Shown: positions 3,708 through 45,067 of the stretch, piece by piece | How the letters are laid out: the number at the start of each line of letters is the position of its first letter | How positions within the stretch are numbered: the first letter of the stretch is position 1 | Assembly: GCA_031407385.1 (NCBI GenBank) | Contig: JANOIH010000004.1 | Coordinates: 4,104 to 68,103 of the forward strand | Direction of reading: 5' to 3' | Origin: Candidatus Altimarinota bacterium | GTDB taxonomy: Bacteria; Patescibacteriota; Gracilibacteria; BD1-5; UBA2023 | Length of the DNA: 64,000 nt | Translations under genes and position numbers: made by a program | The notes under the pieces: generated by a model | What the model was told of the DNA's origin: nothing | What the model saw: only the letters and a program-made list of their open reading frames with translations | Database searches by the model: none

Positions 3708-4418
3708 TTATTGTTGGATCTGATCGAGTCCGAGGTGCATATTGGCGGGGAGTGCGATATCGATATATTTCGGATAGTCGAGCCTGACGGCTTGCATCGT
3801 CTCTATGAATTCTGTTACTGTAGTGGTATCCTTGATTCGAGTGTTGTATTTTTTCTCTTCTCCGACCGTACTCATCGTCTGTCCCGTGTAGTCATGCCCT
3901 GGGTAGATTCTCGTGGTATTGGGGAGTGTGTATATTTTTTGTTTGATTGACTCATAGAGTTGCTCTGCGGATCCTCACTGGAAGTCAGTCCGTCCCGTCT
4001 TGCGGATCAGGAGTGCATCACCTGTGAATATCATATCCGCAATCAAGAAACTGGTACACCCATCCGTATGTCCTGGAGTGGCGATAGCCTGGATCTGTAT
4101 TGCTCCAATAGTGAATATTTCTCCATCTTCGAGCAATATATCGGGTTTGGCAATCTGAGCTCACATTCACATCGCGATCTTGGCACCTGTTTTGGTACGT
4201 AAGAGTCCTGATCCAGTGATATGATCGGCGTGGATATGTGTATCGAGGATGTACGAGAGAGTGAGTCCGAGCTCCGAGAGCAGCTTGATATCACGATCGA
4301 TCTGATCCCGCACTGGATCGATGATGAGAGCGAGTTGCGTAGTCGCATCACCTATGATATAGGTGTATGTCGAACTCTTCTCGTCGAAGAGCTGGCGGAA
4401 GATGAGAGGAGAATCCAT
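3708..4418 (-). CDS. MBL-fold persulfide dioxygenase (ETHE1-like)
   Basis: YTYIIGD...DTHIHADHITG...ATPGHTDGC...GRTDFQ-G(TGA)-GSAEQLY...IYPGHDY. 236 aa with three in-frame TGA. Confidence 0.8.
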
Positions 4419-4424
4419 AAAAAT

Positions 4425-4769
4425 CTAGTTAAAATAGCTCGGTCTGAACGCCTCAGTGATCTTGATGATATCTGATTGGTCTCGATAGAGTTCTGCGATA
4501 CTGCCTGCTATATTGGTCGCCGTTTTACCTTGTCACTCGAGCCACGCACAGACTTGACCACTTCGCCCGCCAGTCCGACAAAATATATAGACAGGTCGAG
4601 AAAAATCAATCTCTCAAACACGAAACTCGATCGATGAGAGGGGAATCAGTTTGGCTCCTGGGATGCGTATCTGTGCCCACTCTCTCTGCTCACGGACATC
4701 GATGAGTTCGATATCTGTTGAATTCTTGAGAAGTATTTCGAGTTCTTTTGAGGATATTTCTTTATACAT
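4425..4769 (-). CDS. Rhodanese-like sulfurtransferase
   Basis: Active-site loop CRTGGRS. 114 aa with two in-frame TGA. Stop TAG. Confidence 0.8.
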
Positions 4770-4770
4770 A

Positions 4771-5196
4771 TTATTTTGAGGTCAATTTTTTATAGAAGAG
4801 CATACTCACTATCATCGAGACGAGGAATACGAGAATGTATGGATCGAGGAATACGATGCTCCCGATCGCTGGACCCGGACAGAGTCCGCCGATGCCCCAT
4901 CCGATACCGAATAGTGCTGATCCGATGATGAGCTTGGAGTCGATGATTCCTTTTTTTTCCCAAGGGAAGTGCCATCGGTCTGAGAAGTGTGGAGTTTCTT
5001 TTTTGGAGAGGAAAAAATGCCCGATCACCGATACCGTGACGGCTCCGATCATCACAAAAAGGAGCGTCGGATCCCAGCCATAGGCGATATCGAGAAATCC
5101 TCGAACTCGATCTGGCGAGGTCATATCCGAGAGTGTGAGGGCAAATCCGAAGAGGATACCCGAGATGAGGGAGACGATGTTGGTGACTGTGGACAT
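4771..5196 (-). CDS. YeeE/YedE-family sulfur-compound transporter half (DUF6691-like)
   Basis: 141-aa multi-TM ORF with GWGIGGLCPGPA motif. Stop TAA. Confidence 0.75.
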   Translation of the reverse strand: MSTVTNIVSLISGILFGFALTLSDMTSPDRVRGFLDIAYGWDPTLLFVMIGAVTVSVIGHFFLSKKETPHFSDRWHFPWEKKGIIDSKLIIGSALFGIGWGIGGLCPGPAIGSIVFLDPYILVFLVSMIVSMLFYKKLTSK

Positions 5197-5202
5197 AGTG
5201 TG

Positions 5203-5619
5203 CTAGACGATAAAATGAGTAACAAATACAGCGATCATACCGCTCGTGACGAAGACGAGAGTAGCGACGATAGAGCGGAGAGAGAGTCGACCGATACCGC
5301 AGACAGCGTGACCGCTCGTACATCAGTTTGCCATACTGGTACCGACTCCGACGAGTATCCCTGCGATGATGGCGATGATGTATGAGGGGTTCGTATTGCT
5401 GATGTGATATCCGGGTACGATGTAGCTATAGAGTGCGACACCGAGCATGAGCCCCACGAGGAAGTAGTATCTCCAGTATTCGCTTTTGGCGAGCTTGCCC
5501 AGTATTCACTTCACGATGCCAGATACACCCATCACACGCCCGAGTCCTCATGCAAAAAGAAGTGCCGAGAGTCCGATGAGGGCTCCGCCGATGAGAGCGT
5601 TGATATAGAGTGGATTCAT
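5203..5619 (-). CDS. YeeE/YedE-family sulfur-compound transporter half
   Basis: ...SMAN-G(TGA 5323-5325)[17 protein letters not shown]. 138 aa with three in-frame TGA. Confidence 0.8.
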
Positions 5620-5630
5620 AGGTAGTGGGA

Positions 5631-5927
5631 TTATTCGCAATAGATAGTAGAGAGCGATGAGAGGAGCGTGAGTATCTCTGGATTGCTGATGCGGTAGGTG
5701 ATATAGAGTCCTGACTTCTCAGATCCGAGGATTCACTCGTGTCGCATCTTGGTGAGGAACTGTGAGAGTTGGGATTGTGAGATATTGCAGGTTCTCTCGA
5801 GTTCACCGACCGTCTGCGGTCACTCCGCGAGCCGACAGAGTATGATGAGTCGCTTGGGATGTGATATGGCCTTGAGGATTTTGGATACGGTTTCTGCTTG
5901 AGTCTCGAGATCCGATAAGGTTTTCAT
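5631..5927 (-). CDS. ArsR/SmtB-family transcriptional regulator
   Basis: ILKAISHPKRLIILCRLAE-G-PQTVGELERTCNISQSQLSQFLTKMRHE-G- ; winged HTH; 98 aa. Confidence 0.8.
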
Positions 5928-5950
5928 AGTTTTTATATATATGTTTCGAC

Positions 5951-5972
5951 TATATTATGAATATATAATATA
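5951..5972. promoter_or_regulatory. Candidate operator: 8-bp inverted repeat TATATTAT-N6-ATAATATA in the divergent ArsR/ppk2 intergenic region
   Basis: Perfect inverted repeat read directly, 24 bp upstream of the ArsR start. Function is inferred. Confidence 0.35.
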
Positions 5973-6081
5973 ATGTCAAAAGATTTTTGTTCTATTTTGC
6001 AAGTGATTTTCTCAGGTTTTATTTTGTGAAAAGAGAGAAACCTATACTATAGGGACTATTATCCGACTCATCTCACCACCT

Positions 6082-7248
6082 ATGAAACTCTTCAACATCA
6101 CCGATATATTCAACAACATCATAACTATGAGTCCCGAGACACTCGAGGCGTTCCATGATGAGCTGCACACCAACTACAAGAAGCTCCGCAAAGATCTCGA
6201 CGTGGACAATCTCCGTGTCCTCGGCAATCGTATCCAGACGGTCATCGATGGCAATATCAAAAAACTCGGACACAAAGAGCAACACAAGCTCCACAAGCTC
6301 GAGACACTTGCTCGTGAGATCAGCGAGACCGTGATCGAGATCGAGACCGCGCAGAAGAACGCCATAGAACTCGTAGATCTGGAGAAGAAGTTCGACAAAA
6401 AATACAAAGCCCTCAAAGAGCTCCCAAAAGAAAAAGCGAAAACTCATGTCCTCATCGCCATGAAGAAGTCTGAGATCAACTATGAAGAAGAGATGCTCAC
6501 CCTCCAGATCGAGCTCGTGAAGCTCCAGAAGTATATCCAAGAGTCAGGGAAGAAAGTACTTATCATATTCGAGGGACGTGATGCAGCAGGGAAGGGTGGC
6601 AATATCAAGAGATTCACTGAGTCACTCAATCCTCGCTATGCGAAGGTGGTTGCCCTCATGAAGCCGAGTGAGATCGAGAAGTGACAGTGGTACTTCCAGA
6701 GATATCTCGCACACCTTCCGAACGCAGGTGAGATGGTATTTTTTGACCGATCATGGTACAACCGTGCCGGTGTCGAACCAGTGATGGGATTCGTCGGGAA
6801 GCGCGACTATGAGAAGTTTATGGATGATGTACCACTTCTGGAGAAGATGCTCGTGAAGTCCGGGATCAAGATCATCAAGTTCTACTTCTCAGTATCCAAG
6901 ACCGAACAGGCAACACGATTCCACGAACGTCGTACGAACCCACTCAAGCAGTACAAGCTCTCTCCTATCGATCAGTTCTCTCAGAAACTCTGGGATCGCT
7001 ATACTCTCGCGGAATATGAGAACTTCTCCCGGACGCACTCAGACCATGCCCCATGGACGATCATCAACAGCGATGACAAGGAGGCATCTCGTATCAACTC
7101 GATCAAGTATATCCTAAACCAGTTCGACTATCCTGAGAAGATCGATGCGAGCAAGATCGAAGTCGATGACAAGATCGTCCATACAGGACGAGAGAAGGTT
7201 CGCCTCCTCGAGAAGGATGTAGATATGGCGAAGAGTCTGTTTGAATAG
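6082..7248 (+). CDS. ppk2: Polyphosphate kinase 2 with ~150-aa coiled-coil N-terminal extension
   Basis: GRDAAGKGG Walker A, ...EIEK-G(TGA 6682-6684)-QWYFQRYLAHLPNAGEMVFFDRSWYNRAGVE. 388 aa. Confidence 0.85.
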
Positions 7249-7269
7249 TATTTGTGGTTGACAATTTAT

Positions 7270-7301
7270 AAAAAACTATATTATATATAATATAGTTTTT
7301 T
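7270..7301. terminator. Intrinsic terminator (perfect palindrome)
   Basis: aaaaaactatattatatataatatagtttttt. Confidence 0.6.
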
Positions 7302-7313
7302 ATTTCAATCATT

Positions 7314-8090
7314 ATGCCATCGTATGATAGTATCACAACTGATATTTTGACCCCTATGTTTGAGGGAAAGTATCCTAATCCTCTTGCTGTCGGTCAGCTC
7401 GCGGATTGAGTAATAAAGACCGTTGCTCAACAAGTTAGTGGAACATTACTTGTTGCAGATATTTGATGTTGAACAGATCCTATATCACCAAGAATTTTTT
7501 TAAGAAATGAGGCAAAATTTCTTTTAGTCGATAATAATCCTACAATTGAACTAGAAAAATCTCACCTCCCTGAATATGTATCATTGGCACAGGTTGATAT
7601 GAACGATGCAAAGGCCATGAATGCAGCAAAAAGAGAGTTCTTTCATACTCACAAATCTCTCGGAAAAGGTAGTTTTGACGTTGTTCTCCTGTCAAATATA
7701 CTAAATTACTTTACTGATTGAACTACTCCTTTGAAACCATGAGAGATATCTCCTGTGATGCGGAACTTTTGGGTTAACTTCGTAGAAAAAAATCTCTCAA
7801 AAAAAGGAGTAGTAATTATCCAAAACGGTGATAAGGGTGCACGGTATGAAAATTTAAAAGAAGAACAAGTAAATGATTATTTTAGTCCTGCAATGGAAAA
7901 TTTGATTACAAAAAATTTCATTGATTCGTACTATTTTTGAATAGCATTTACATGAACGTCTTCATCTAATGAAAATATATCACTTGAAGCGTCACCTTGA
8001 TTTTGTTCATTGAAGGAATACCAGGTAATTAAGAATGAATGAAAATTATTAAAAGCAGTGAATCTACGAGTATTAAGAAGAAAGTCGTAG
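7314..8090 (+). CDS. Class I SAM-dependent methyltransferase
   Basis: Motif I LLVADI-G-C-G-TDP, with both Gly encoded by TGA (7464-7466, 7470-7472). Under code 25 the ORF runs to TAG 8088-8090. The last ~50 aa are uncertain. Confidence 0.65.
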
Positions 8091-8102
8091 GATCTAGTAG
8101 CA

Positions 8103-9542
8103 TTATATCTTATCAACTATATTCCTCCCCGCCACATACCCACTCGCCCAACATATCTGTAAACTGAATCCACCAGTATACCCATCCACATTGAGCACCT
8201 CTCCTGCGAAGTAGAGATTTTTGCTGATTCTAGACTCCATAGTCTCTGGATCGATCTCATCTGTATTCACGCCTCCCGCGGTCACGAACTCATCCCCTGG
8301 TCGACGCTCGATTAGAGTTATGGGTATTCATTTTCAGAGGAGCTCTGCTATATGTTCGCGGTCTTTTTTGCTGATAGATGCCGCATATGTTTCGCGAATC
8401 AGAGGGAAGTGTTCATCAACGAATCCATCCACGAATCTTCGAGGAAGCTTATCTGCGAGGATACTCGTGATGAGCTTCTTCGGGTGTTCTTGGAACTCTC
8501 TCTTGAGGAACGTCTCCCACAGAGGTGTATCCATATCTGCGAGAGGCGCGAGATGGATGATTTTTGGACTATTGCTTCCGAGCTTCTCCCAGGCAATCCG
8601 AGATGAGTACATGAAAGACAGCGGCCCAGAGATCCCGAAGTGCGTGAGGAGGATCGGTCAAGTGAGTTCTCCTATCCTTGCTTCTGGGAATGCGAGACCC
8701 GAGAGCTCATGTGTCCACTTCTCCCGCGAGAGAAAGCTCGATAGCGATGGTCCGAGTGGTGTGATCGTATGCCCGAGTGCGCGAGCGAAGGCATAGCCAT
8801 CACCAGTAGAACCAGTATGGCTATATGCGCTCCCACCTGTCGTCACGACGACGATATCTGCGGTATAAGAGCCTTTGGGCGTAGTGATTGTATATTTCTG
8901 AGTTTTTTTTGTTTCTCATTGTTTTCTTTCCTGGTGTTCCTGTCATTTCGACCAAAATCCATCTGCTTCTGTGAAAGATGAAGCGGAGAAATCTTGCCCG
9001 ATTAGAGCAGGATTTCTCGATTCCGAAAATCACGGATACAGATTTTCTTCACTCGAAATGACAGAATCAACACCTTCCCCATAATGCAGAGTCACTCTAT
9101 CGCGATACTTCGCAAATACTCGCTCGAACACATTCACTATATCATGTCCGTCATCTGAGATGGGGAATACTCGCAGATCCTCTTGCACCTTCAGTGGGAC
9201 GCCATGCGACTCGAACCAATCATACACTTTCTGTGGTCAGAACTTGCCCATCGCCTTGCGGATGAACTCCCACCCTCGAGTATACTTGCTCGCGAGGATA
9301 TGCTTATCGGTGATACTCGTTGTCACATTGCACCGACCACCTCATGAGATGATAACTTTATTCCCTGGGGTTTTGTTTTTCTCGAAGATATGGATCTCAT
9401 ACTCCTCCCCTTGTAGGGGAGGTTGGGTGGGGTACCCCCTCTGGCTCCCCCTAGAAGAGGGAGAATCAGACAGAGACTCCAGTATCGTCGCAGCAGTCAT
9501 GAGTCCTGCAGCGCCTGCTCAGATGATAGCTATCGTTTTCAT
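8103..9542 (-). CDS. HI0933/BaiN-like NAD(P)/FAD-dependent oxidoreductase
   Basis: IAII-G(TGA 9519-9521)-AGAAGL, ISGGGRCN, TGGSAYSHTGSTGDGY, THFGISGP and TAGGVNTDE...LYFAGEVLNVDGYTGGF. 479 aa assembled from 5 track fragments. Carries two in-frame repeat insertions. Confidence 0.85.
8942..9062. repeat. GTCATTTCGA...TCGAAATGAC MITE-like element inserted in frame in the flavoprotein CDS
   Basis: 10-bp terminal inverted repeats at 8942-8951 and 9053-9062. Translates without TAA/TAG as VISSEENLYPGFSESRNPALIGQDFSASSFTEADGFWSKGQ. Confidence 0.6.
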
Positions 9543-9650
9543 GTGTGGAGTATATGGATTTTGCCCGCTTTCTAAAGTGAAAATATGAAAATCGAGTGTA
9601 TTTGTCACCTTTTTTGCATATAATCGTCCTAACACTTGTATATACACACG

Positions 9651-10217
9651 ATGGCCGAATCCCTCATACAAAAAGCAAAATCCTGAGATCTTCTCGCTTT
9701 TGGAGATCTCTATGATACTTCATACGATCGCGTGTACCGCTTTCTCTTTTACCGTACGCTCGATACCGTCGCCGCCGAAGATCTGATCTCTGACGTCTAT
9801 ATGAAGGCACTGAAGGGTATCTCACGGTTCCGCTGAGAGAGTGAGTGAGAGTGGTACTCCTGGATACTCCAGATAGCCTATACGACACTCATAGACTCCA
9901 CCCGCAGACACACCGATACCAGTCTCGACGAGCTCATCTGGGAGCCATCATATACGACAGATGTGGACGCGAGTATCGACGACCGAGACACACTCGCTCG
10001 CGTGCTCGACTACATGACCACTCTCCCCGAGCGGGATCGTGCCATCGTCATGATGCGTATCTGGGACGACCTCTCCTACGACGAGATATCGGCTATCACT
10101 GGAGAGTCAGTGTCCAACAGCAAGCAGATCGTCTCTCGCACACTCCAGAAGATATCGGCCAACGTCTCTGTCCTCTCACTCATCATATTCCTCTCTCTCC
10201 ATGCCCTCAACAAGTAA
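9651..10217 (+). CDS. ECF-type RNA polymerase sigma-70 factor
   Basis: Region 2 (FGDLYDTSYDRVYRFLFYR) and region 4 (LPERDRAIVMMRIWDDLSYDEISAITGESVSNSKQIVSR). In-frame TGAs. 188 aa. Confidence 0.8.
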
Positions 10218-11163
10218 CGACATATCCCGAGATATCACCTCACATCTCTCTCCCGAGTCACGCACTCCCGAGATGGAGGAGCTGATCCGTGTCGTCTCTA
10301 CAGTGCGGCCACAGGTACACATCGATCGCACCTATCAGAAGGAGCTCCGATCTCGTCTCATGAGCAAGACGTCCAAGAGATATATATTCTCCCTTCCTAT
10401 CTGGACAGGAGTCGTCTCGACTGTATTCGCGGCACTCATATGAGTATTCGCCCTATCGAGTATCTGGACTCCCCGTGAGGTGAGCAACGAGATCGATCCT
10501 ATCAGCTCCATGATCTCCGATACCCCTCAGACGTCCAGTACGACTGCCACACTCTCACAGAGTGAGATGCCGACAGTACGTGATATCCCATGAGAGTCGC
10601 AGAAAATCCTACACTCAGAGATCGTCACTCAGTCTACGCCCAAGTCTCTGAGTACAACAGAGACAGATATGCCCACGCCTGATATGATGATGCGCAGTAC
10701 TGAAGCTACCCCAACTGATATATCAGTTCCCATCGAGTGAGCTGCTATGATGACATCTATAGCACCATCACCTACTCTGGATACGACGCCTCTCGATACC
10801 GAGATCACGGATATGATGTCAGAGATCAGCTCGATCATCCATCCTCCGACTGTGACTATCGTGATCCCACCGTATCCTCGCCAGATGACTCTCTATGAGC
10901 AGGGTGTCGCCTTCACTCCAGCGGAGATCAGTTCCCAGACTGGTACATCACTCACTGTCCGCACCGTCGATACGATCTCTGATACCGCTCTGCTCCGCAA
11001 AAAAATCACCGCACTCACAACATGAGATCAGATCGTATGAGAAGGTCAGGTGATCTATCAGGAATTCACACGATCAGGTATCCATACTCTCGTCCCAGTC
11101 CTATCATATACTCTCACATCAGAGAAGGTGATATCGGTGAGTCTGGTGGTAGGATATGAGTAG
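10201..11163 (+). CDS. Putative anti-sigma factor (single-pass membrane protein)
   Basis: Overlaps the sigma gene by 17 nt. One TM (IFSLPIWTGVVSTVFAALI) and a Thr/Ser/Pro-rich extracytoplasmic part. Frame checked open with 5 TGA. Assignment is by position only. Confidence 0.45.
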
Positions 11164-11279
11164 GAGAATATATGCCGAGGATCCTCTTCGCTAGGAGGGG
11201 ATTTTCTTTTGACAAAAGGAGAAACTGGATAGAATAATGGCAGTACTCAGAGGACTATTTACAACACTAGCACTCCAAT

Positions 11280-12155
11280 ATGACTGATAAGATCTCTATT
11301 CGTTTTTTCGACAATCGTGAAGTGCGTGCCATCTGGGATGAGACCAATTCCAAGTGGTGGTTCAGTGTGCTCGATATCGTAGCTGTCCTCACAGATCAGG
11401 ATGACTATGCCAAGACTCGCAACTACTGGAAATACCTCAAGGCCAAACTAAAAAAAGAAGAAAATCAAGTGGTGAGTGCTACTACCCAGTTCAAAATACT
11501 TGCACCAGATGGAAAAAGTCGTCTGGCTGATATGCTCGATTACGATGGCATTATTACTCTCGGCAAGACCTTCCCTGGGACGAAGGCTAATCGGTTTATC
11601 GAGTGGTTCACCTACAGTGACGAGAGTATCGACGGCAAGAGCAAGTCAAAAGCCTATGCACTCTTCGAGAGCTCACTGATAGACAATATCGAAGTCGGAA
11701 CCATCACAGGATTGCAACAGATCCATGCCTATCTCTTCGGTGGACTCTATGGCTTCGCTGGGCAGATCAGGCAGAAAAATATCTCAAAATGAGGTTTCCA
11801 ATTCGCAGTAGCTCAGCATCTCGATACAACGCTCAGAGGGATAGCAGAGATGCCAGAGGACACATTCGAGAATATAGCACAGAAGTATATCGAGATGAAC
11901 ATTGCTCATCCATTTATGGAGGGCAATGGACGCAGTGCTCGTATCTGGCTCGATCTCATGCTGAAGAAAAATATAGAAAAATGTATCGACTGGAGCAAGA
12001 TAGGGAAGGATGAATATATGCATGCCATGATCGAGAGTCCGTCAGAGAGTAAAGAGATCATACAACTCCTCAGAGATGCCCTCACTGATGAGATCCACAG
12101 CCGTGAGATGTATATGAAGTGAATCGATTATTCGTATTATTATGAGGAGAACTAG
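11280..12155 (+). CDS. Bro-N DNA-binding domain fused to Fic (AMPylase-type) domain
   Basis: N-terminus [32 protein letters not shown] (Bro-N-like). Fic motif [15 protein letters not shown] at 11790-11792 and 12120-12122. Stop TAG 12153-12155. Confidence 0.8.
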
Positions 12156-12245
12156 GTTATAGCAAAAAGCCTAAACACTCCTCACATAGACTTCGCATAA
12201 TACTCAGTTCTCCCACCATATCATATGGTGAGGTAACCATTTTGG

Positions 12246-12270
12246 GGCTCGCTTGCGAGCCTCTTTTTTT
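12246..12270 (+). terminator. Intrinsic terminator
   Basis: ggctcgc-tt-gcgagcc followed by tcttttttt. Confidence 0.55.
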
Positions 12271-12345
12271 ATGATTCATATATTCGCGAAGAAATAGTTG
12301 GAAAAAGTGGAGAAAATCATAGAATAGGGCAAACAGTAAAAAAAA

Positions 12346-13499
12346 GGCTTAATGAACAAAAGTTGGTAGGTTTTTCATCTCAATTTACTCCTTCCAAAGA
12401 AGACTCAGTGCTAAACTGAGTCTTCTTTCTTTAGTGAGTCCACGATGAAGTTTTACCTTTGGTTTAAGATGAGAGAATATTCACTCTATTCGGTTACTCG
12501 TATTGATGATAGGATTCTTAAGTACAGAATGGTTCTTCTGTAGTGTTTGGATGAAATCCAAACACACGAAAAGCTGATCTCTACTTCTCACGAGTGAGTT
12601 ATATGCAAGATGCAATCGCGGGTGAATATACTTATCTTTGAGAGTTTTAGTGTCCAATTCTTGTTGCCTGAAGTCTGCATCATATTTTTTTCTGAACTCT
12701 GTGAGTTGTCACAAAAATGTAGATCTATCTGTATTTACCATTCCATGTGTTATCTCTTTGAGTTTTTTGTAGGATTCTATTCTGGGATATTTGAGGAGGT
12801 ATCTATCTATAGTAGCTATCTTGTGTGCTTGGCAGAGTTGTATTGGTAATCCATGGTAGTATTTGTGTATGGCAGTATCTATACCATTTCTTCCATCGAT
12901 CACTGCAAAGTGAGGATATGGATACCCGCCACGAGAGAGATAATGAAGGAGTACTTCGTAATCTTCTTTTGTTTCCTGAAGGATATGCTTGGATGCGAGT
13001 ATATCTCCAGTAATACCATCTATGGCTACAAGAAGTCACCACTGAGTATCTGAACCCTTTCGTCCGAAGAATGTGGCATCGAGGATGAGGACTGATGAAA
13101 CATATGAATCCAAAAGCGGATTGAGACGAATGTTGTGTTGCTCTTTGGATACTACTATCTTTCCTCTGAAGATAGTAGTCAGTTTTCTATGTATTGTTTT
13201 GATCGATACTCAAGCATCATTTGCAAGTTCAGCAAGGGTTTGCTTGTGGAGAGAATAAGAGAGGAAGAGTTGATGATTTTCTTGTATTTTTACCCCAGAT
13301 ACTCTTCTGGAACTCCGAAAGATATAATTACAATTCATACACTTATACCGTTGTCTTCAATCCATTTTACCAAACTTCTGAATCGATTTTCCCTGACATT
13401 TCTTACAGATTTTAATCATAAAAATAAAATAGAGAGGATAAACCTCTCTATTATGCGGAAAACTCAAGAAAAAACCTACCAGGAAATGTCCATTAAGCC
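12346..13499 (-). mobile_element. IS1595-like insertion sequence (1,154 bp)
   Basis: Imperfect ~30-bp terminal inverted repeats: ggcttaatgaac...ggtaggttttt (12346-12375) versus the reverse complement of 13470-13499. Flanked by A8/A7 runs, a possible 8-bp target duplication. Single transposase ORF. Confidence 0.75.
12385..13419 (-). CDS. DDE transposase with N-terminal zinc ribbon (IS1595/IS1-like)
   Basis: CKKCQG...RYKCMNC zinc ribbon; LDATFFGR, VIDGRNG and TSNRIE-G-IFSHLK motifs. 344 aa. Frame checked open with 5 in-frame TGA. Confidence 0.8.
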
Positions 13500-13529
13500 A
13501 CAAAAAATCCCCTTCGGAGGAAGAGGGGA
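13500..13529 (-). terminator. Intrinsic terminator of the R-M gene
   Basis: atcccct-N10-aggggat. The T-run on the minus strand is where the IS is inserted. Confidence 0.6.
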
Positions 13530-13548
13530 TATATAGATAGATGATAGA

Positions 13549-16500
13549 TTAGAGATATTTCTTCAGGATTGCCTCTTTCTGAGCTGGGATATTCGCGAGT
13601 TCTGATTCGAGTACAGAGATCTCTACATCTATCTGCTCGATCTCTGTGACTATACGCTGTTGTTCTGAGAGAAGAGGAAGTGGGATTTCAAAAGATGAAT
13701 ATTGTTGAGCATTGATATTTGGCTGAGCTGTTCCAGCTCTATTGTTCAATACCCAATTCTTATAGTAATCAGCTTTTAGTATAAAATTCAGAAAACTCGC
13801 ATCAAGAATATCTTCTTTGGTTCTAAATCGAATTAGATATCCTGCATATAATGCTTTGCCGAATTCTTCCCTATAGAAGAATGTCTTTCCTGCTGTTGCT
13901 CATGATCGTGCAAACAAAAAATCTCCATCACTTAGTATATATTTTTCTGCCACTGTTTCTGCTGTTTTCCATTCATTATTGAGCTTCCCACTATCGTTTA
14001 TATCTGTGATTCTGATATATCGATAATCTTTTTCTGGATTTCATTCTGTGGCACTTTCATTGGCTCCATACATTGGTTCGTGACATACCACACCAAGTTT
14101 GCAAAGATTATATTGTCCATAATAGCCATTAGCCCTCTTAACGATATCAGACTTATGTACTCCTAATTTCTCCTTGTTCTTAGCCTCTTTCTTCTCTAGT
14201 ATCTCCATCTCATCGATGATCTGTTGTTGTGTATCGAGAGATGGGAGTGGGATTTTGATATTTGATAAATCCTCACCATATACATGAGGCTGTGCCTGTC
14301 ATCTCTGCAATCCATATACCTCTGACTGAACTGTTTTCAGAAAAAGAGATATCAACTTTGTTGATATTATCGACTCATCTTTCGACTGTACTGTATTGCA
14401 ATCTGATGCAAAAATAGGAGTCGTGAAATAGTTCACAAAACCTGCATATGCACCTGATGCACTTATTGTGATAATATCACCTGTTCGATTGGACTCATTA
14501 TGAAAATAAGCTTCTTGTTGTCCTCATGCAATGACAGGAATAATTCAATCTTTGATTTTATCCTTTGTTATTGAAGTTCATTTCCATATCTTAGCGACTT
14601 CTCCGAGGGAGACTAATTTATTACTTTTCCAGATATCCTCATATTTAACTTTTTTTTTTACGGAAAGTGATATCGTTTTCTCAAACTCAGCTCGATCGAG
14701 CGTGAGCATATCGACGAGACTAACATGAGATATATACTGCTCTAGACTCGCAACTATAGGTCGATCATGGCGACCTGAGAATGCATCGAGGATATATGTA
14801 TTGACTCGCTCAGGACTCTCTACATCGGCAGGATCGAATAGGAGTGTACACTCATCGATCGTCTTGCCACGACGGATCGGATGGATACCCTCATCTCACT
14901 TGCGGTTCGAGAACTCATATCCGAGGAAATTTTTCTCATCTTGCTTGTCTCCGCTCTTCACAAGGACGATCTCTTGTCCGTATGCGAGGATATAGTAGAG
15001 TATCTTCTCTCGTTCAAGAGTGATGACCTGAGCGAGCCAGTCCTTTGGATTTTTGGATCTTATCTTTTTCTGGTAGTCGGTGTATATTTCATGGCTCTGC
15101 ATAGCCTCACTCGGCTCTCCAGATATGAGGCTGATATAGTCATCGAGCGATATCGTCTGCCAGACATGAGAGACATATTTCGAAATCCCATTTTCGAGGA
15201 CAGTATTATTTGTGAAGTTTGTCTTGATATTGATATCCTTATGATTCTGGAAAAAGTTCTTAATTCCAGTTTCGATACTTTCAAAATCATAGTTGCTCCG
15301 TCTCCTCAAGAATAATATCACTGTATTCGTCCCTGTTGCCATGAATGTCCCACTCCCGAGCTCGACGATCGCGACGAACTCAAAATACTTAAGAAGTATC
15401 TCACGAGTCTTGGTATATATGCCACCATTGGATAATATACTCGATGGGAGGATGATCGCAGCGATACCTCACTCTGCGAGGAGCTGCTTGGTCCGCTCGA
15501 TGAAGAGACTCTCTATCTGTGAGCTCTGATCCGTGAGGGCATCATAGAGGACGAAGTCTTTGTCTGCGGAGCGATTTTTCAAATTCCCTTTGCAAGCCGA
15601 TACGCTATACGGAGGATTGGAGAGAACAAAGTCAAATTGCCCGTTATCCTGAGTTCCTGGGATTATTTTTTTGAGCTTCTTCGAATAACTATCTGAATGC
15701 GTGAAACTATCGAGTCCGTCACCATGGATGACATTGGCGATACCATCACCATGGAGATAACACCCAACCTTGGTCGTCTTCACCAGACGATAGTCGAGCT
15801 CGACACCATAGATATACTCATACGCCCACTTGAACCCATGTCTTTGCCAGTCCTCGAGCTCTTGTCCTGCTGACCGAGGGAAATCCTTGACCTCTAGTGT
15901 CTGGATGATATTCTGGAGCTCTTCCATCGACTCAGTGAGGAAGTGTCCGCTCCCTGCAGCGTAGTCGATGATATTCGGGAGGAGCTCACCTCTGGCTCCT
16001 GACTTGAGTTTCTTCTCAGTGATCTGACGCATCGGGATACTCTTGCAGATGAATCTCGCGATCGGTACAGGGGTGAAGAATTGTCCTGCCTCTTGCTTGA
16101 GTCCTGTTGTGAGCAGGAGCTCGAAAAAGTCACCTAAAAATGGTTGTTTTTTTGCATAGCGAAACCTGTATCCCTGGAGAAGTTCGACTACTTCTTTGAG
16201 GACTTTTGCATTTTCTTCAAATGTCTCTTCATCGAATACTTCTTTGATAGCGAACTCGTTGTTCTTCTGGAGACGGATACGAGTGAATTCTCTGAGAATA
16301 TCTTGTTTGATCTTCTCATCAGTGATAGCCATACCGAACTTCCGATGGAAATCATCATCAGAAAGATCACTGATATCTTTTTCGAGAAAATCCTTCATTC
16401 CCTTCTTATAGAGGTCTGAGAGTCTCTTCTGAAATGATATCGAGTCATCTTCTCCTTCCTTCCACTGAAAATCTACTTCCTCGTCTTCGTCGGTACGATC

Positions 16501-17286
16501 TTCGTCTTTGATCTTGCAGAGAAAGAGTGTGAATATCTTATTGAATGCATTTGGCTTGTCAGATACAGCATTGTGACGGAGGATCTCGAGGAATCGATTG
16601 AAGATAAAAGAGCTATCCTCTTGTCGGATCTCTGCGAGATTGCCGAGGGAAAGTGCCTTGCTCTGGAAGTCATACGCTCGAGTCCAAGGCTCGAATATAC
16701 CATTCTGCTTGGAAAACTTGTTCCATCTATTGTAGAGATCCTCGGTATTGCTCGCCATCTGCCGATAGTCCTCTTCTACCTTGATGATCTCATTACGATA
16801 TTGTATTTCTTTGCCGTCGAACTGTGACGCATAGAGTACGAGGAACTCTGCACTACGATCTTGCTGAAGATATGAGAGGAGTTGTCCTCACTTTTTCTGA
16901 GTATTGAGCCATTCTTTATCGAACTCTCGTCCCCAGGTTTTGCACTCGATCATGAGATATGCCTGACCATCTCGACGGACAAGGATATCGAGCCATCCTC
17001 CTGCTGCACCATGTCCGACAGTGAATTTTTTCTCTAGAACGATATCTTCGGGACGATATCCCTTCTCAAGCAAACGATTCACGCACTCGAGTACAACCCA
17101 GTTCTCTTCTTGGGAAAAGTTGCGAGTCGTATCTCGTTCTGACTTGATCCGTTTGTTATAATCGATAGTTTCTTTTTCAAAATCTACTTCAATAGTATAA
17201 TTATCAAAAGATGTGAACTTCTTCACAAAAATCCCCGTAGTATTCTCTTTCGGTGTGAAACCAAGCTGTATGACGAATTTTTTCAT
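13549..17286 (-). CDS. Single-polypeptide restriction-modification-specificity enzyme (Type IIB/IIG, AloI/CjeI-like architecture), 1,245 aa
   Basis: One frame free of TAA/TAG for 3,738 nt, with 9 TGA. N-terminal PD-(D/E)xK-like GGWLDILV...LMIECK. gamma-N6A methyltransferase motifs FFTPVPIA, IIDYAAGSGHFL and LSNPPYS. C-terminal HsdS-like part has two TRDs and two conserved helices (LPSLDTQQQIIDEM, LPLLSEQQRIVTEIE). Confidence 0.8.
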
Positions 17287-17368
17287 ATAATGGAGTATAT
17301 GAATATGCTACAATAGTTCAAAAGAAAATGTATTCCGAAGTATACAACAATATGTATAATCTGTATAC

Positions 17369-27424: not shown

Positions 27425-27527
27425 GTCATTCCGCAGCTTGCGGAGGAATCCCTTTCAAGCTCATCTTAAGAGATATTGATTCTTTCTTTCTCATAAGTGG
27501 AAGAAAAAGGGATCTCTACGAGATGAC
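27425..27527. repeat. 103-bp GTCAT...ATGAC double-hairpin MITE-like element (copy A1)
   Basis: Nearly identical to 45306-45408 and similar to 34566-34674. Internal hairpins tccgca-gct-tgcgga and atctc-tac-gagat. Confidence 0.75.
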
Positions 27528-28021: not shown

Positions 28022-28711
28022 ATGAATGAACAAAAATCTACTGAAGCATCATATGATATTCGCATGAATCGATGATCTTTCTGATTGGAATTAAATCTTC
28101 GTATACGAGGACTAATATTTCGTACACTTATAGAAAAATATCTCGACTCTATTCCTAAACTTCCTGATTGAGTTGTGGTTGATCTCTGATCAAATGCTGG
28201 CTACAAAATACCAAGTCTTCTCAGGGCTTTCCCTGAAAGGAAAATTATATGAATAGATAACCACTCTCCTTCAATCCAGAAATGAAAAGTTCTTTTTGCT
28301 GGAAATAGCAAAGTACAAATGAGAGTATGAAATGCTATGAAGCTCCAGGATAGCGTAGTAGAAAAAGTATCACTTATATTTACTTCTCAGATGCTCCATC
28401 ATTTTGATTTTGCAGAAAGAATGATGATTCTTAAGGAAACTATTAAAACTCTTCTACCGGGAGGCATATTGCTTGTCTCAGATACTTTTATAGATAAGGA
28501 TTCTATTCTGGGGAATCTACTGAAAACAGGATATAAGCATATAGCAAAATCTGATGCATATCATAATATACCACCGGAACAAATGAAATCAGAATGAGAA
28601 GAAATAGGTTATGATTTTATCTCAAGGCATGATACTACGTCATTTAAAAAAGTAGGATTTTATCCTTCAAGTTTGTTTGTTTTTCAAAAACCACTAGAAC
28701 AACCTATGTAA
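28022..28711 (+). CDS. Class I SAM-dependent methyltransferase
   Basis: VVVDL-G(TGA)-SNAGY motif I. 229 aa with 9 in-frame TGA and no TAA/TAG (checked). Confidence 0.7.
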
Positions 28712-29987
28712 TCTCCTTCATCTTCTCAACCAACCTCTCTATATCCTCTCTCGTATTGTAGAGATAAAGGCTCACTCGGAGTGATCCTCATATCCCGAGA
28801 GTAGTATGGAGTACATCGGTACAGTGATGACCCGATCTGACACAGATATCTGCATCAGCGAGCTGCTCAGCGATATCGTTCGGATGATGAGCGTCAAAAG
28901 CGAATGAAAATACTCCGAGGCGATTCTCAGGGTTTTTTGAACCGAGGAGTCGTATCGATGATGGGAGGGCGGAGAAGAGCTCCAGAGCATACGCTGTGAG
29001 TTCTTGCTCATATTTTTCTATAGTCGCAAATCCCCCGATAGAGTCGATATAGTCGAGAGCCGCGAGGAGTGAGACAGCTCCTGCGATATGTGGAGTGCCT
29101 GGCTCATGACGGAACGGGAGACCAGCAGGCATATATCACTCAGTTGTGACAGAGTTGATCGCACCCCCACCGCAGAACGCTGGATCCATCTTTTGCAATA
29201 GATCCTTGCGACCATAGAAAAACCCAATCCCAGTATCACTCATCACCTTGTGTCCAGTTGCTACGAAGAAGTCGATCCCATATTGCACGACATCCGTCTC
29301 CATATGTGGGAATCGCTGTGATCCATCGAGGATGAAGATAGGTCTCGTGAGCTCCTTTGTAAAGGAGCTGTCACGGAGTGACTGAGGATTTTTTTCAGCA
29401 ACCAAATCCCCCCTGCCCCCCTTTACAAAGGGGGTATCCAAACCATCAAACATCCCCTTCACCCGATCCAAATTCAACACCTCTCCTGTCACATTCGATG
29501 CTCCTGTGATCGAGAGGACTTTAGCATGAGGTAACTTGGCCTCCAGTGAGTCATAGTCAAGAGTCCCATCTGGATGGAGCTCAACCCAATCGATGAGAAT
29601 CCCGTACTCAGTGGCGATGATCTGCCAGGGGACGATATTGGCATGATGCTCGACTTTTGAGAGGAGAACCGTGTCCCCTTTTGTGAGATATCCTGACTTC
29701 ACGAGACCCTGAGCAATCAGGTTGAACGCGTAGGTCGCGTTGTAGGTGAATACGATCTCTGCTGGACTCGCATGGAGTTTGCTTGCTACAGCCGCCTTGG
29801 CTCGGTCATAGAGCAATGAGCTCTGTGTGGAGAGATCATATGCTCACCTATGTATATTGGCATAGTCAGTCGCAAAAAAATGCGATATTGCATCGATGAC
29901 TTGTTGCGGCTTTTGTGCAGTGGACGCAGAGTCGAGGTAGACAAGCTCGGGATGAGTGGTGAATATGGGGAAGTCAGATCGGAACAT
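28704..29987 (-). CDS. sufS: Cysteine desulfurase (SufS/class V aminotransferase)
   Basis: YLDSASTAQKP, ANIHR-G(TGA 29844-29846)-AYDLS, ATGHK, HEPGTPHIAG and RSGHHC. 427 aa. Contains a ~37-aa hairpin-repeat insertion. Confidence 0.85.
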
Positions 29988-30022
29988 AGAGTATGAAAGG
30001 TGAAGTTAGAAGATGGAGAGGA

Positions 30023-31462
30023 TTATCTCCACCACGTATCTCATGTGGGCTGAGTCTCGTCTTGACTGCCTGTATGCGTCTCTCTATCTCTCTGGATCTC
30101 TTCGATATAGTGACTCGCCTCGAGGGAAAAGTCAGCTGTCGGATCGCTATCGCGTACCTGTGTGAACAGAGAGAGTGCTGTCAGAGTATCGCCAGTCTCC
30201 AGAGTCGCGATCCCCTTCTCGAGGAGGACGATAGGTGAAGTGGCGACAGATGACGAGAGTGTATCGAGGTATGCGCGAGCATCGTCTGTCTTCCCGACGA
30301 GGCGCATACTCGTGAGCGCAAGGGCTGCTATAGTAGACGAATCCTTGTACCTGGTTTGTGCATTGCTAGCCCAGACGTAGGCCTTCAGATTCTCACCGTT
30401 CTGCAGAGCGAGTGAGATCGCAACAGCGGTGTCATCTTCGGTAGCATCGGGCTCTGCGATGAGATAGGCGAGCACACGCATCATGCCTGGTACGTCTGAG
30501 AGTCTGGAGTAGCTATAGGCGAGCCGACGTTCGATGGCGGTCTTCGGTGTATATCCTGCGAATATCGCATTGTTATAGTAGAGATTCGCTGTGGAGTAGT
30601 CATGTTCTGCGAATGCGATCTCTCCGAGCCTCAGGATAGTCTCAGCATCTGTAGGTGACTTCTCCAGATAGGCGAGGAGATTCTTCTTGGATTCCGTGGA
30701 GTTCCCGAGCTCATAGAGGGAGAATCCGAGAAGCTTCTCTACTCACTCATAGTCAGGACGGGCCACGAGGATCTCGCGAGCGAGGATCGCACTCGCACGG
30801 TAGGCACCATACTCATAGAGCTTCGCTGCTGTGGTGAAGTTACGATACTGATAGTCTGGCGATATCTTCGCCGCGTCACGGATGCCAGACTGGAGTGACT
30901 TCACTTGGGTACTCGTACCAGAATATGCCTCGATGGAGACGATACAGTTGTGTATCCCTGTATGACAGGTATCGAGTATCACGTAATAGTCGTGCGTACC
31001 TGTCGCGGTCGGTATACGTGAGAGTTCTCCGATACGATCGAACTGTGACTCATCAGAGAAGAGTGAGGTGAGCATCTCCTTCTGTTCACTCTCCGTGAGC
31101 TCATCGATAGGAGTACGCACGTAGGCTGCATAGGCATTTTTCCAGTCTCGCTTCTGTGCATAGGCATGGCCGATCTTCTTCTGTATGACGACATCCTCTG
31201 GGAGCTTCTCAGCCACTGCGAGGTAGTATGCGAGGGCTTCATCGGGATTGTTCTTGAGGGTGAAGTAGTCCCCTTTTCGTATAGAGTCGAGTTCCTTGCG
31301 TCTATCGCGGATGAGTGCGATCCGCTCCGCATCGGTGAGTTCTTTGGCGTACTTCTCTCAGGAAGCGAGCACTCATGAGTCCGCACTCCCAGGGAGAGTG
31401 ATACTCGTACACGCCGTGAGGAAGAGAAGTGGTACACAGATGAGGAGGATATATCGATACAT
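30023..31462 (-). CDS. TPR-repeat lipoprotein
   Basis: Lipobox LLFLTAC followed by TPR-like repeats. 479 aa joined across 5 TGA. Stop TAA 30023-30025. Confidence 0.7.
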
Positions 31463-31554
31463 GCGCACCATGATACACAACGAGTGGATTCACACAAGGG
31501 GAAAAGTGAGAAAATATTGACGACATCATCACTTCTCGTATACTCACGCCCATT

Positions 31555-32898
31555 ATGTTCAATCTAAGTGACTACACATACTCGCTTCCTAGCGAACTCA
31601 TCGCCGAGACGGCGATCCATCCACACCATGATGCACGACTCATGGTGATCGACCGAGCAAGTGGACACCTAGAGGCAGAGTCGACTTTCTGGCATCTGGA
31701 TGAGTTTCTCGGAGAGGATCGGGTGATATTTCTGAACAACTCCCGAGTACTGCGTGCCCGTATCGCACTCTCAGCTACCCTGTACACGAGTCCAAGTTGA
31801 GAGTCCAAGATACTGAGCGAAGGAGAGATATTTTACCTCAAAACGAATACACCAGATACCTTCGAGGCACTCGTCAGGCCGGGCAACAAGTTCAAGATCG
31901 GGACAATATTTGAGATCTGAGAATATAAAATAGAGGTTATCGGGATCACGGATTCTGGTAGAATCCTCAAAATTAATAATTCACAATTAATAATTAATAA
32001 TTTACTTGCTACTCACGGTGCCCTCCCGCTCCCTCCATATATCGAGTACAGTAGAGAAAAGGAAGCTGACTACCAGACGAGTTTTGCTGAGAAAGATGGC
32101 TCAGTGGCCGCACCGACTGCATCTTTGCACTTCACGAGCGAACTCATGGAGAAGATAGAGAATCAGAAAGAATACATCACTCTCCATGTGGGACTTGGGA
32201 CTTTTAAGGGGATCGACACCACCGATATCCGAGAATATGCGATCCACTCGGAAGTGGTCGAGGTTCCTACGGAGATATTCGCGACTATCGCCGAACTGAA
32301 GCAGTCATGAAAACGTATCGTCGCCGTCGGAACCACCGCATGTCGTACACTGGAGTCGCTTCCATCACTCTGGCGGGCACTCGATACAGATATGAAAAAT
32401 ACTATTGATGCGAATATTCGCGATTATTGGGATGCCCTGATTGGAGACTTGGAAGAAAATACCTGGATACAGGATATTATTCCAAGTAAAACCAATACTT
32501 CTTTTTCAGATTCAGAGATTTCTCAAAAACAAGAAATTCCCGAGATTATCCGTAAAGAAGAATGATTTACTGATAAGATCGCATGCAGAAAAATTTTTTC
32601 TAACGATGAAGTTCCGAGATTATCTGCAAACTGCAAAGCAGATGCTGATAAGATCGCATGCAAGGCTCGCAGTTTTTCAGAAATCTCCTTTTCTACTTCT
32701 ATCTATATCACTCCAGGATACATATTCCGCGTCGTGGATGATCTGATCACCAACTTCCATATCCCAGAGTCGTCACTGCTCGTCCTCGTGAGTGCGTTCC
32801 TCGGATACGAAGCAACGATGGAGATCTATGAGCAGGCGATATCAGGCAGATATCGATTCTATAGTTTCGGCGATGGGATGTATATACGATGAAAATAA
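31555..32898 (+). CDS. queA: S-adenosylmethionine:tRNA ribosyltransferase-isomerase
   Basis: [43 protein letters not shown] and [11 protein letters not shown]. 447 aa with 5 in-frame TGA. Carries a 58-codon repeat insertion. Confidence 0.9.
32515..32687. repeat. Inverted-repeat-bounded element inserted in frame in queA
   Basis: gagatttctcaaaaac (32515-32530) versus gtttttcagaaatctc (32672-32687). Internal direct repeat ctgataagatcgcatgca x2. Confidence 0.55.
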
Positions 32899-42791: not shown

Positions 42792-43400
42792 TTAATGTTG
42801 TGTCACCATGAAGTAATACGAGCTCCCGAGTGTCGTATCAGAGATTGTTCCCTTGTAACTCGCCTTCATATTCTGGAGGTTTGCGAGAGAGACAACCCCA
42901 TCAGATCCGATGTCGCTCCCTGTCAGATAGTTCCCGTTGGTGAGTACACTCATACGAGCGCCGAGAAGTGAATACTTATTCCCATCCTCTATCGCAGTGA
43001 AACTACTATAGAGATATGATCCGCTGCGTGTACATGGTCCTATGGGTAGTGTTAACTTGAGAGGATCTCTCATCGGCTTATTAAAAAGAAGCTCTCGGAG
43101 ATCGACGAATTGTTGATCTTTATTTTGAGCAATACTTGGTCGCTCGAAGAATACTTCGTCAGCACAATAGCCAAAAGCACCGACACTTGCATCATTGCTT
43201 GGCAGCATATCATGATCTTTGTAGTAGAGATCCACTACACGATCATAGTGTGAGAGGTCAGTGAATCGGGCAACATCTCGTGATCGATTCAGATATGGTC
43301 ACCCCATATAAAAAGCACCCGCAGCAAGAATCCCTATCATTGCAATTACGAGCATTATTTCAATAAGTGTAAATGCTTTAGCGGAGAATGTGTATTGCAT
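42792..43400 (-). CDS. Type IV pilin-like protein (prepilin N-terminal motif)
   Basis: MQYTFSAKAFTLIEIMLVIAMIGILAAGAF. 202 aa with one in-frame TGA. Confidence 0.75.
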
Positions 43401-43495
43401 AAGAGAAGTATAAGTAAATATATCTAGAGTATAGTCAACTTCCCTAAAAATCAAAAAGATCTTCGATTATACGAAAATCTTTTTGATCAGATGAG

Positions 43496-43987
43496 TTAGC
43501 GTGCCATGATATAGCCTATACCATAATTTTTCTGAAACAAACCATAATTATCCATATTTTGAGAACCTGACTGAAAACTCGAAAGTACTCATCCCGTATT
43601 ACCGTTACCCTGATTTTCCATAACTGCAGAGAATACAACAGAGTATGAACCACGTGTCAGTCATGTACCAGCACCATAAGAATTTGCTACACCACAGTGT
43701 GTTTTGTTCTTATCAACTGGTGTTGATCAGCCCATATATATACCCAGAGCGGCATTACTGACACAAGCATTGGTGGTGCCAGACATCACGAGATCATAAC
43801 TCCCTTTATCTAGAAAGAGGGCAGAAGCTGCCGTCATAATCTGTCCAACGTGAGATACACGAGCAGTATCACGAGACCTAGAGAGGTATCCAGAGATAGC
43901 TGGGAAGAGAGCGGCAGCGAGTACACCGATGATCGCGATCACGATCATGAGTTCGACGAGGGTAAATCCACGAGTAGTAAGCTTCAT
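43496..43987 (-). CDS. Type IV pilin-like protein
   Basis: MKLTTRGFTLVELMIVIAIIGVLAAALFPA. 163 aa with 3 in-frame TGA. Confidence 0.75.
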
Positions 43988-45059: not shown

Positions 45060-45067
45060 GGATTATC

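Follow-up and report, generated by a model that had tools for sequence, protein, structure and literature searches.

How does a conserved flavoprotein gene come to carry, in its own reading frame, a piece of DNA that folds back on itself from end to end? The question is raised by a 64,000-nucleotide stretch of a Gracilibacteria genome (Candidatus Altimarinota bacterium, contig JANOIH010000004.1; the whole stretch is called the window below), in which a palindromic element of 125 nucleotides (nt; 8940..9064, minus strand) lies within a gene of the HI0933-like family (8103..9542, minus strand). A preliminary description made from this DNA had called it an element like a MITE (a miniature inverted-repeat transposable element), inserted in frame and kept open by the use of UGA as a sense codon. 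The explanation we favor, and hold with good confidence, is that the element is a palindromic repeat of a non-coding type, comparable to the Rickettsia palindromic elements (RPEs) or to intragenic repetitive extragenic palindromic (REP) sequences. In the same explanation, it is lodged in a loop of a Gracilibacterium protein, at a hairpin turn of the flavin adenine dinucleotide (FAD)-binding domain of the HI0933-like flavoprotein, and belongs to a wider class of palindromic repeats bounded by (C/T)GTCAT...ATGAC(A/G).

The host gene encodes a protein of 479 residues and ends in TAA. It contains nine in-frame TGA codons, two of which occupy glycine positions in the motifs GxGxxG and SGGGRCN, which identifies the genetic code as table 25 (UGA = Gly). 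The protein is matched by the Pfam families HI0933_like (E 2.5e-66) and HI0933_like_1st (E 7.6e-17), and its nearest solved relatives are the aminoacetone oxidase 4cnj together with 2i0z, 3v76, and 2gqf. Both Pfam domains, the intact GxGxxG and SGGGRCN motifs, and a three-domain fold place it in the HI0933-like/aminoacetone-oxidase family of FAD flavoproteins, as had been claimed for this coding sequence, and its closest database proteins and loci come from Candidatus Gracilibacteria. Outside the element, the window protein shares 89% amino-acid identity with orthologue P0002, as against 61% identity at third codon positions, a difference that points to purifying selection and thus to a working gene. 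The public gene call for the locus, P0001, is a 739-residue protein (8106-10331, minus strand) in which TGA is read as Trp. The true start is at 9542 (MKTIAII), and P0001 begins 260 codons upstream of it; this false 260-residue N-terminal extension arises because few stops remain. When only TAA and TAG are counted as stops, the window holds 336 stop-to-stop open reading frames (ORFs) of 100 codons or more, which makes naive ORF calling untrustworthy in this DNA.

The limits of the element are set by its terminal repeats. The 10-bp inverted repeats first reported, GTCATTTCGA and TCGAAATGAC on the plus strand, are present at 8942-8951 and 9053-9062 as described. The repeat is in fact perfect over 12 bp (CTGTCATTTCGA; 8940-8951 and 9053-9064), and the element measures 125 nt between the outer ends; the extent originally assigned to it was ~121 bp, and 121 is not a multiple of three. 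In the sense of the gene, the 5' arm (CTGTCATTTCGA; 9053..9064, minus strand) is read (S)VIS, and the 3' arm (TCGAAATGACAG; 8940..8951, minus strand) is read S-K-[TGA=G]-Q; both arms are kept in six of the six copies described below. Between them lies a central hairpin, GAGAAATC...GATTTCTC (8986..9018, minus strand), whose 12-nt arms (8986-8997 and 9007-9018) are 92% complementary. No inner module of the family is better conserved than this hairpin, which has invariant pairs in the six-copy alignment and is also present in copies from the IMG/VR database. The element is followed by an A/G-rich, Gln/Lys-rich tail (EHQERKQGETKKTQ; 8898..8939, minus strand) whose length differs between copies; comparable CAG/AAA-rich flanks follow other GTCAT elements.

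Taken alone, the inverted repeat is weak evidence, because repeats of 10-12 bp at such spacing are expected by chance: within 200 nt, the window has 33 perfect 10-bp inverted repeats versus ~17 expected and 3 perfect 12-bp repeats versus 0.9, the expectation coming from simulated sequences with the same dinucleotide make-up. The feature is real because all 125 nt fold as one long hairpin, in agreement with the earlier description of the element as palindromic. As RNA, this imperfect hairpin has a minimum free energy (MFE) of -52.7 kcal/mol versus -29.3 +/- 3.5 for shuffled sequences (z = -6.8), and none of 200 shuffles folds as well; with DNA folding parameters, z = -6.0. No Rfam family matches the element. 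The strongest 120-nt fold of the whole window lies elsewhere in the same gene (8391-8560; MFE -54.3 kcal/mol), in its conserved C-terminal half, and is not an insertion because that part of the gene is conserved in all homologues.

Read on the minus strand in the frame of the gene, the element corresponds to residues 161-201 of the 479-residue protein, VISSEENLYPGFSESRNPALIGQDFSASSFTEADGFWSKGQ, and contains neither TAA nor TAG. The predicted segment is exactly the 41-residue peptide given in the preliminary description, which had spoken of about 40 added residues, and its translation would yield peptides such as NPALIGQDFSASSFTEADGFWSK. Three in-frame TGA codons occur in the insert region: one within the element (9030-9032, minus strand; Gly171), one supplied by the 3' terminal repeat itself (8943-8945, minus strand; Gly200, in AA-TGA-CAG, that is TCG AAA TGA CAG), and one in the tail (8916-8918). 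Because the chosen frame holds these three codons, the insert is tolerable only with UGA as glycine, and the proposed dependence of the frame on a sense UGA is borne out. Of the element's six frames, four are open under code 25.

Alignment with homologues places the segment between conserved blocks, as had been suggested. With phmmer, query residue 146 meets residue 124 of the 4cnj chain and query residue 212 meets residue 138, so that ~66 query residues face ~14; the alignment to 2i0z shows the same gap. Insert-free orthologues are also available: P0016 (GVDSILSGNSAFQITT), P0010, and the proteins of loci L001 and L002 have a short turn at the insertion point, and relative to such empty orthologues the window protein carries the 41 element residues plus a variable tail, for a net gain of ~48 residues. 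We looked in the homologue alignments for signs that the segment is ancestral and conserved; it is instead absent from the solved homologues and from many orthologues, and the alignments establish it as an insertion relative to both. An AlphaFold (AF2) model was made of P0001, which differs from the window protein only in having W for TGA and the false 260-residue N-terminal extension. The core of this model has predicted local distance difference test (pLDDT) values >90, and block means are 38-70 over the insert (P0001 421-470), lowest at 434-451, with a helix predicted at residues 451-470. Superposition of the model on 4cnj, 2i0z, 3v76, and 2gqf gives target-normalised template-modelling (TM) scores of 0.83-0.85, which indicates that the fold is kept and that the insert is an excursion from it. 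One of the empty sites deserves a separate remark: in P0004 (L034 2997-3125) and P0005 it reads GTTTCC ATC TTTGAC AAAGAGACAG (SIFDKETE). As speculation only, SIFDKETE could be what is left of an element (...AATGACAAAGAG end) after almost complete deletion, in which case the ancestor of that clade already had an insert.

The site is occupied well beyond the window. At least 12 extra residues occur at the position of the element in 45 of 120 orthologues; other insertion sites in the same set lie after residue 291 (~21 orthologues) and near the N-terminus (~17). The peptides found at the main site are of many kinds (VIARNEAIQ..., VIPAKAGIQ..., LSSWGTKDL...DSSQTRNDK), and in most of them the first residues are VI or the last are [W/G]Q, NDK, or MT, the three readings of GTCAT and ATGAC. 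The [W/G]Q ending, in which the TGA of the terminal repeat is read in frame, is present in 26 of the 45 insert-bearing orthologues, and short, decayed versions of the antisense type are found in P0069 and P0117. Judged from these orthologue sequences, the loop is an insertion hot spot across Gracilibacteria. Inserts account for much of the length range of the flavoprotein in this lineage, 396-567 residues. The window protein also has a second in-frame insert nearer its N-terminus (9399-9479, minus strand; residues 22-48; ESLSDSPSSRGSQRGYPTQPPLQGEEY), made of two small G+C-rich hairpins with an RNA MFE of -42.7 and a z of only -1.9. It is common to the window and orthologue P0007, is absent from most other orthologues, and has a weak, sub-threshold Rfam match to whalefall-1 (E 0.39).

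Five orthologues carry elements of the same family as the window element at the same loop. In P0002 (82% identical overall) and P0006 (67%), it has the same orientation as in the window; P0012, P0029, and P0060 contain 100-112-nt relatives in the opposite orientation. The six copies align over their full length, terminal repeats and central hairpin included. A covariance model was built from these six copies, three in gene sense (window, L032, L033) and three antisense (L037, L038, L039), and it separates the strands clearly: the better strand scores 139.7 bits versus 77.2 for the other in the window, where the gene strand is the better one, and 110.7 versus 50.9 in L037. The strand score differences are ~60 bits, with the gene strand better in three copies and the antisense strand in three. 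In both orientations the reading register relative to the repeat is identical, VIS...SK[TGA]Q, and the frame is open, with neither TAA nor TAG in any of the copies, whichever their orientation.

The history of the element was compared with that of its host gene. In a neighbor-joining tree made from core columns of the orthologues, the window protein and P0002 are sisters to P0004 and P0005, both without the element, and P0006 falls in another clade, beside a protein with a different insert. Between the window and P0006, the element is 91.9% identical in nucleotides (87.8% at third positions) versus 69.3% (46.2%) for the rest of the gene; between the window and P0002, the values are 89.4% (85.4%) versus 82.2% (61.3%). 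The ~10 differences that separate the window element from that of P0006, five of them at third positions, are spread evenly over codon positions. Amino-acid identity within the element is no higher than nucleotide identity, which argues that conservation acts at the nucleotide level. A sliding-window comparison limits the raised identity to about residues 150-217, and a long recombination tract was rejected on this ground. Within a mosaic tract at residues 153-217 (8892..9086, minus strand), the window groups with the distant P0006, not with its sister P0002. Counting as informative the positions at which the window agrees with only one of the two, sites favor P0006 over P0002 by 14:2 in the flanks (residues 153-160 and 202-217), versus 62:233 elsewhere in the gene (Fisher 8e-8). 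In P0002, the element sits in the flanks of its own clade. The simplest reading of these patterns is that the insert, together with very short flanks, would have moved laterally between orthologous genes by recombination. Alternatively, after a single ancient insertion the element may have inverted between its terminal repeats, decayed, and been lost, a course of events that would need strong constraint on the nucleotide sequence.

The terminal repeats also lead to a larger family. A search of IMG/VR with the pattern TGTCATTTCGA-N70-100-TCGAAATGACA returned eight elements on seven contigs of 41-62% G+C, where a rough estimate gives ~0.1 expected, and these elements share an inner GGAGAAATC...GATTTCTC hairpin. 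On the same contigs, the covariance model detects copies outside the pattern, with E values down to 4e-8: L045 has at least seven, and L042 and L044 have four apiece. The IMG/VR copies lie mostly at gene ends and are mostly intergenic, in high-GC contigs. L045 (IMGVR_UViG_3300029288_000501) packs its at least seven copies into 7 kb (4244-11018) as a dense array with TGTCATTTCGA ends and the GAGAAATC hairpin. L042 and L044, like L045 high-GC ‘viral’ contigs, also hold dense arrays of same-ended repeats, and a motif scan of the three shows no GIY-YIG gene. The 20-mer GGAATCGAGAAATCYTGCTC has no match in IMG/VR. An exact 21-mer of the central hairpin was found among JGI metagenome contigs in two GC-rich contigs that share only this 21-mer, and these were discarded as chance.

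Repeats with the same kind of ends are dispersed in the window itself. Two 103-nt repeats (27425-27527 and 45306-45408, also 45306-45465) are identical at 98 of 103 positions, and their similarity begins and ends exactly at GTCAT and ATGAC. They open with a dRS3/NTS-like unit, GTCATTCCGCAGCTTGCGGAGGAATCC, and are apparently intergenic because stops occur in several frames. A 74-nt GTCAT hairpin lies in a spacer at 1294-1367, and in 156 kb of Gracilibacteria DNA, 12 GTCAT hairpins are observed versus 2.35 expected. In-frame inserts are also present in other conserved genes of the window. A SufS-like gene (28707-30005, minus strand) has an in-frame insert of ~33 residues (residues 181-215, ...TPFVKGGRGDLVAEKNPQSLRDSSFTKELTR) relative to solved SufS structures, which overlaps a perfect 12-bp inverted repeat at 29354-29431. 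The peptide of this insert matches the N-terminal insert of the HI0933 orthologue P0071 (BLASTP E 1e-9), so at least one such repeat family sits in two different genes. In the QueA gene (31375-32895, plus strand; 507 residues), the Pfam match is split in two; the extra segment lies between the arms of a 16-nt inverted repeat (32515-32530 and 32672-32687, 94% complementary) and has within it a tandem duplication of 74-75 nt, in which an exact 18-mer recurs (32570 and 32645).

If the element is indeed an RPE-like or REP-like repeat, it would be transcribed and translated within the mRNA, and the translated insert would form a largely disordered or partly helical excursion that leaves the fold undisturbed. 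Only in-frame, stop-free insertions in tolerant turns would survive, and code 25, with its two stop codons, would enlarge this set; either orientation should be tolerable because four of the six frames are open. The same family would have reached the loop, or stayed there, in several lineages and in both orientations. Its spread would be at least partly lateral, by homologous recombination between orthologous genes that carries the insert with very short flanks, perhaps accompanied by inversion in place. By analogy, candidates for the first mobiliser are a transposase that binds the terminal repeats, a hairpin-specific HUH transposase, or a GIY-YIG nuclease of the Ssn type acting on single-stranded DNA.

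A number of observations weigh against this explanation. A blastn search of the 64-kb window with the element gave no second copy of its subfamily, nor was one seen in 92 kb of related Gracilibacteria DNA. Searched against 5.8 billion proteins, the 41-residue peptide gave no candidate sharing enough words, and a composite query that combined every variant and frame brought back known HI0933 orthologues and nothing else; with the TGA-free peptide of the antisense frame, an exhaustive HMMER search yielded a single weak match. Within the limits of these searches the peptide is confined to HI0933 orthologues, which gives no support to mobility of the subfamily within Gracilibacteria genomes. No target-site duplication is seen at any of the six copies; the CT/AG beside GTCAT/ATGAC are complementary to each other and thus part of the palindrome. 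Among the part of the window ORFs that was scanned, there is no linked transposase, REP-associated tyrosine transposase (RAYT), or GIY-YIG gene; the sole transposase-like ORF (12388-13548, minus strand) has a sub-threshold match to the Mutator family and is not flanked by the repeats of the element. A crude regex motif scan of the 64-kb window and the loci reveals no GIY-YIG or Ssn-like gene, and the published SRM pattern has 0 matches in the window versus 0.46 expected. The boundaries of the mosaic test were chosen post hoc, and its right flank, which contains indels, is of low complexity. Since the terminal repeat served to select the IMG/VR loci, part of their similarity to the covariance model follows from that selection. 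Finally, we infer the translation of the insert from sequence.

Four other explanations of the element have to be weighed. A chance inverted repeat in a naturally variable loop would need nothing more than the ~1 to 17 repeats of 10-12 bp expected per window at such spacing, and is effectively refuted by the z of -6.8 of the whole-length hairpin, by six homologous copies in independent assemblies, and by the related multi-copy repeats elsewhere. An ancient, lineage-specific extension of the loop, selected for a protein function such as an interaction surface and palindromic only incidentally, would account for the open frame in the six copies and in the 45 insert-bearing orthologues, as well as for the helix modelled in part of the insert (P0001 451-470). 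We consider it very improbable: the two orientations encode unrelated peptides (VISSEENLYP... versus VISTELPVSV...), amino-acid identity does not exceed nucleotide identity, pLDDT is low over the insert, and the same terminal repeat and inner hairpin occur at unrelated, mostly intergenic sites of high-GC contigs.

Alternatively, the insert might never be translated, either because the gene is a pseudogene or because the hairpin is removed or bypassed by RNA processing or ribosomal hopping, for which the mitochondrial byp elements offer a comparison. A very stable hairpin in a coding region could stall ribosomes or attract RNases, as this idea would have it. We give it very little credence, since a frame free of TAA and TAG in every copy and orientation would be needless if the insert were skipped, and the host gene is under purifying selection with all family motifs intact. 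With its 125 nt the insert falls far short of the size of a group I or II intron, and it lacks intein motifs; an intron and an intein were rejected on these grounds. A less remote alternative, which we still consider unlikely, is a functional structure resident at the site, that is, a hairpin kept for a role in DNA or RNA at this locus and not an active selfish element. It might serve mRNA stability or translation control, or act as a signal for recombination or transformation like the NTS of Neisseria, whose hairpins modulate recombination (PMC11893778). Nucleotide conservation far above that of the host gene, substitutions even over codon positions, a subfamily seen only at the site in the flavoprotein gene, and a recombination tract that ends near the element all fit such a role. 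The insert is dispensable, however, as close orthologues lack it, others have unrelated repeats at the same place, and some retain decayed remnants. The occurrence of both orientations is hard to square with a function at the mRNA level, and the strict SRM motif and an Ssn-like gene are both missing by motif scan of the window and the loci.

We therefore return to the translated palindromic repeat and to what it would mean. In-frame ‘protein-coding palindromes’, described as a peculiarity of Rickettsia, are more general and also occur in a lineage from the CPR (candidate phyla radiation) with an altered code. There is a link to this code, as the commonest frame of the inserts reads the repeat's own TGA as glycine. 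Annotators should take such segments neither for novel domains nor for errors of assembly. The mosaic flanks, and the way in which a highly conserved insert stands out from its saturated host gene, provide a concrete, testable case of short-tract lateral exchange, and the uncultivated host bacteria are probably naturally competent. A bolder proposal, which we put forward tentatively and would not expect to hold as readily, is that in UGA-recoded Gracilibacteria, GTCAT-bounded repeats serve as exchangeable in-frame cassettes at a few fixed loops in conserved proteins. Cassettes belonging to one family would be swapped, inverted, and passed laterally from one orthologous gene to another across diverged lineages by short-tract recombination, remaining ~90% identical while the silent sites of the host gene saturate, and UGA = Gly would open the frame that contains the TGA of the terminal repeat. 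If this is true, the loss of a stop codon would directly widen the tolerance of proteins to selfish palindromic DNA.

Two further regions of the window were recorded on the way. A low-GC stretch at ~11271-17307 (GC 0.375 at 12001-14000) contains three ORFs and is probably a mobile island. These encode a Fic/Bro-N protein (11271-12152), the product of the transposase-like ORF mentioned above (12388-13548, minus strand), whose N-terminus bears a CxxC...CxxC motif, and a fused restriction-modification protein of 1252 residues (13552-17307, minus strand), in which N6_Mtase and Eco57I domains are joined to two of Methylase_S. At 42795-44750 (minus strand), three adjacent ORFs have N-termini that resemble type IV pilins (FTLIEIMLVIAMIGILAA, FTLVELMIVIAIIGVLAA), as judged from the translations only; they adjoin a cluster of tRNA genes at 44979-45144.

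Among known systems, the preliminary description had likened the element to the RPEs in its behavior, and by analogy the comparison is apt. RPEs, described by Ogata and colleagues (2000, 2002), are 105-150 bp long and form ten families, and R. conorii has 44 copies, nearly half of them in frame within ORFs (PMC10969869, PMC3184786). Like the window element, they are palindromic repeats of ~105-150 bp that lie in frame in conserved housekeeping genes and lengthen the protein by a few tens of residues but do not destroy it; insert-free orthologues exist, and no transposase is known. The likeness is one of behavior, drawn from descriptions and not from sequence, and it spans different phyla, Rickettsia on one side and Gracilibacteria (CPR) on the other. 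The many copies per genome in unrelated genes and spacers that characterize RPEs have no counterpart in the DNA covered here, with one copy in 64 kb and none in 92 kb of related DNA. Also unlike RPEs, the tolerance of the window element depends on UGA read as Gly, one loop holds many repeat families in both orientations, and the window subfamily was seen in no other gene.

A second comparison is with the CGTC-tagged REPs, to which Di Nocera et al. (2013) assigned the R. conorii RPE-4 and RPE-6 and the Neisseria dRS3; these lie inside genes, usually as head-to-head dimers, and have no dedicated transposase (PMC3733652). Related hairpins tagged with CGTCAT (NTS/SRM) are cut in single-stranded DNA by the GIY-YIG enzyme SsnA and are enriched in Rickettsia, Wolbachia, and Neisseria (PMC11893778). 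The window element resembles this group in having a (C)GTCAT tag followed by a hairpin, in lying in frame in genes, and in the lack of a dedicated transposase; the units often set head to head and the wide taxonomic spread of the group are further points of likeness. The repeats at 27425, 45306, and 1294 of the window have near-canonical GTCAT, stem, and ATC ends, as in CGTC-tagged REPs. The element itself has TGTC (CTGTCAT/ATGACAG) instead of the CGTC tag; CGTC does occur in the 1294 element and, at a single end, in the L039 copy. Its terminal unit, ATTTC...GAAAAT, has a stem of 4-5 bp, versus the 8-9-bp stem, 4-5-nt loop, and 3-bp tail of a CGTC-REP (PMC3733652). It is a 125-nt composite with a distinct central hairpin, and TGTC, the short terminal stem, and the lack of an SRM match place it outside the formal definitions of CGTC-REPs and NTS.

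Bacterial MITEs provide a third model, and in-frame MITE fusions are known in Coxiella (QMITE1/2) and elsewhere (PMC5896051). These and the Correia/NEMIS, BOX, RUP, and ERIC elements share with the window element a size of 70-300 bp, terminal inverted repeats, strong secondary structure, and occasional in-frame insertion into ORFs. Of the original label ‘MITE-like’, the terminal repeats stand; a MITE in the strict sense is not supported, as no target-site duplication, parent insertion sequence (IS), or second copy of the subfamily was found. REP sequences and bacterial interspersed mosaic elements (BIMEs) with RAYT, and the palindrome-associated elements derived from IS200/IS605, are likewise built on hairpins, make no target duplications, and are possibly mobilised as single strands. 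Unlike REP/BIME, the window element has no GTAG tag and is much longer than a REP unit, and no HUH/Y1 transposase was found in the window. In the literature we found no paper on such elements in Gracilibacteria or other CPR bacteria; a paper on ‘hypervariation’ in a Gracilibacterium concerns an unrelated PTD tandem repeat. Set against these systems, the window element is of a known kind, the translated palindromic repeat, and what is new is its lineage, its dependence on a reassigned stop codon, the single loop that acts as a hot spot for many repeat families in both orientations, and the evidence for lateral exchange.

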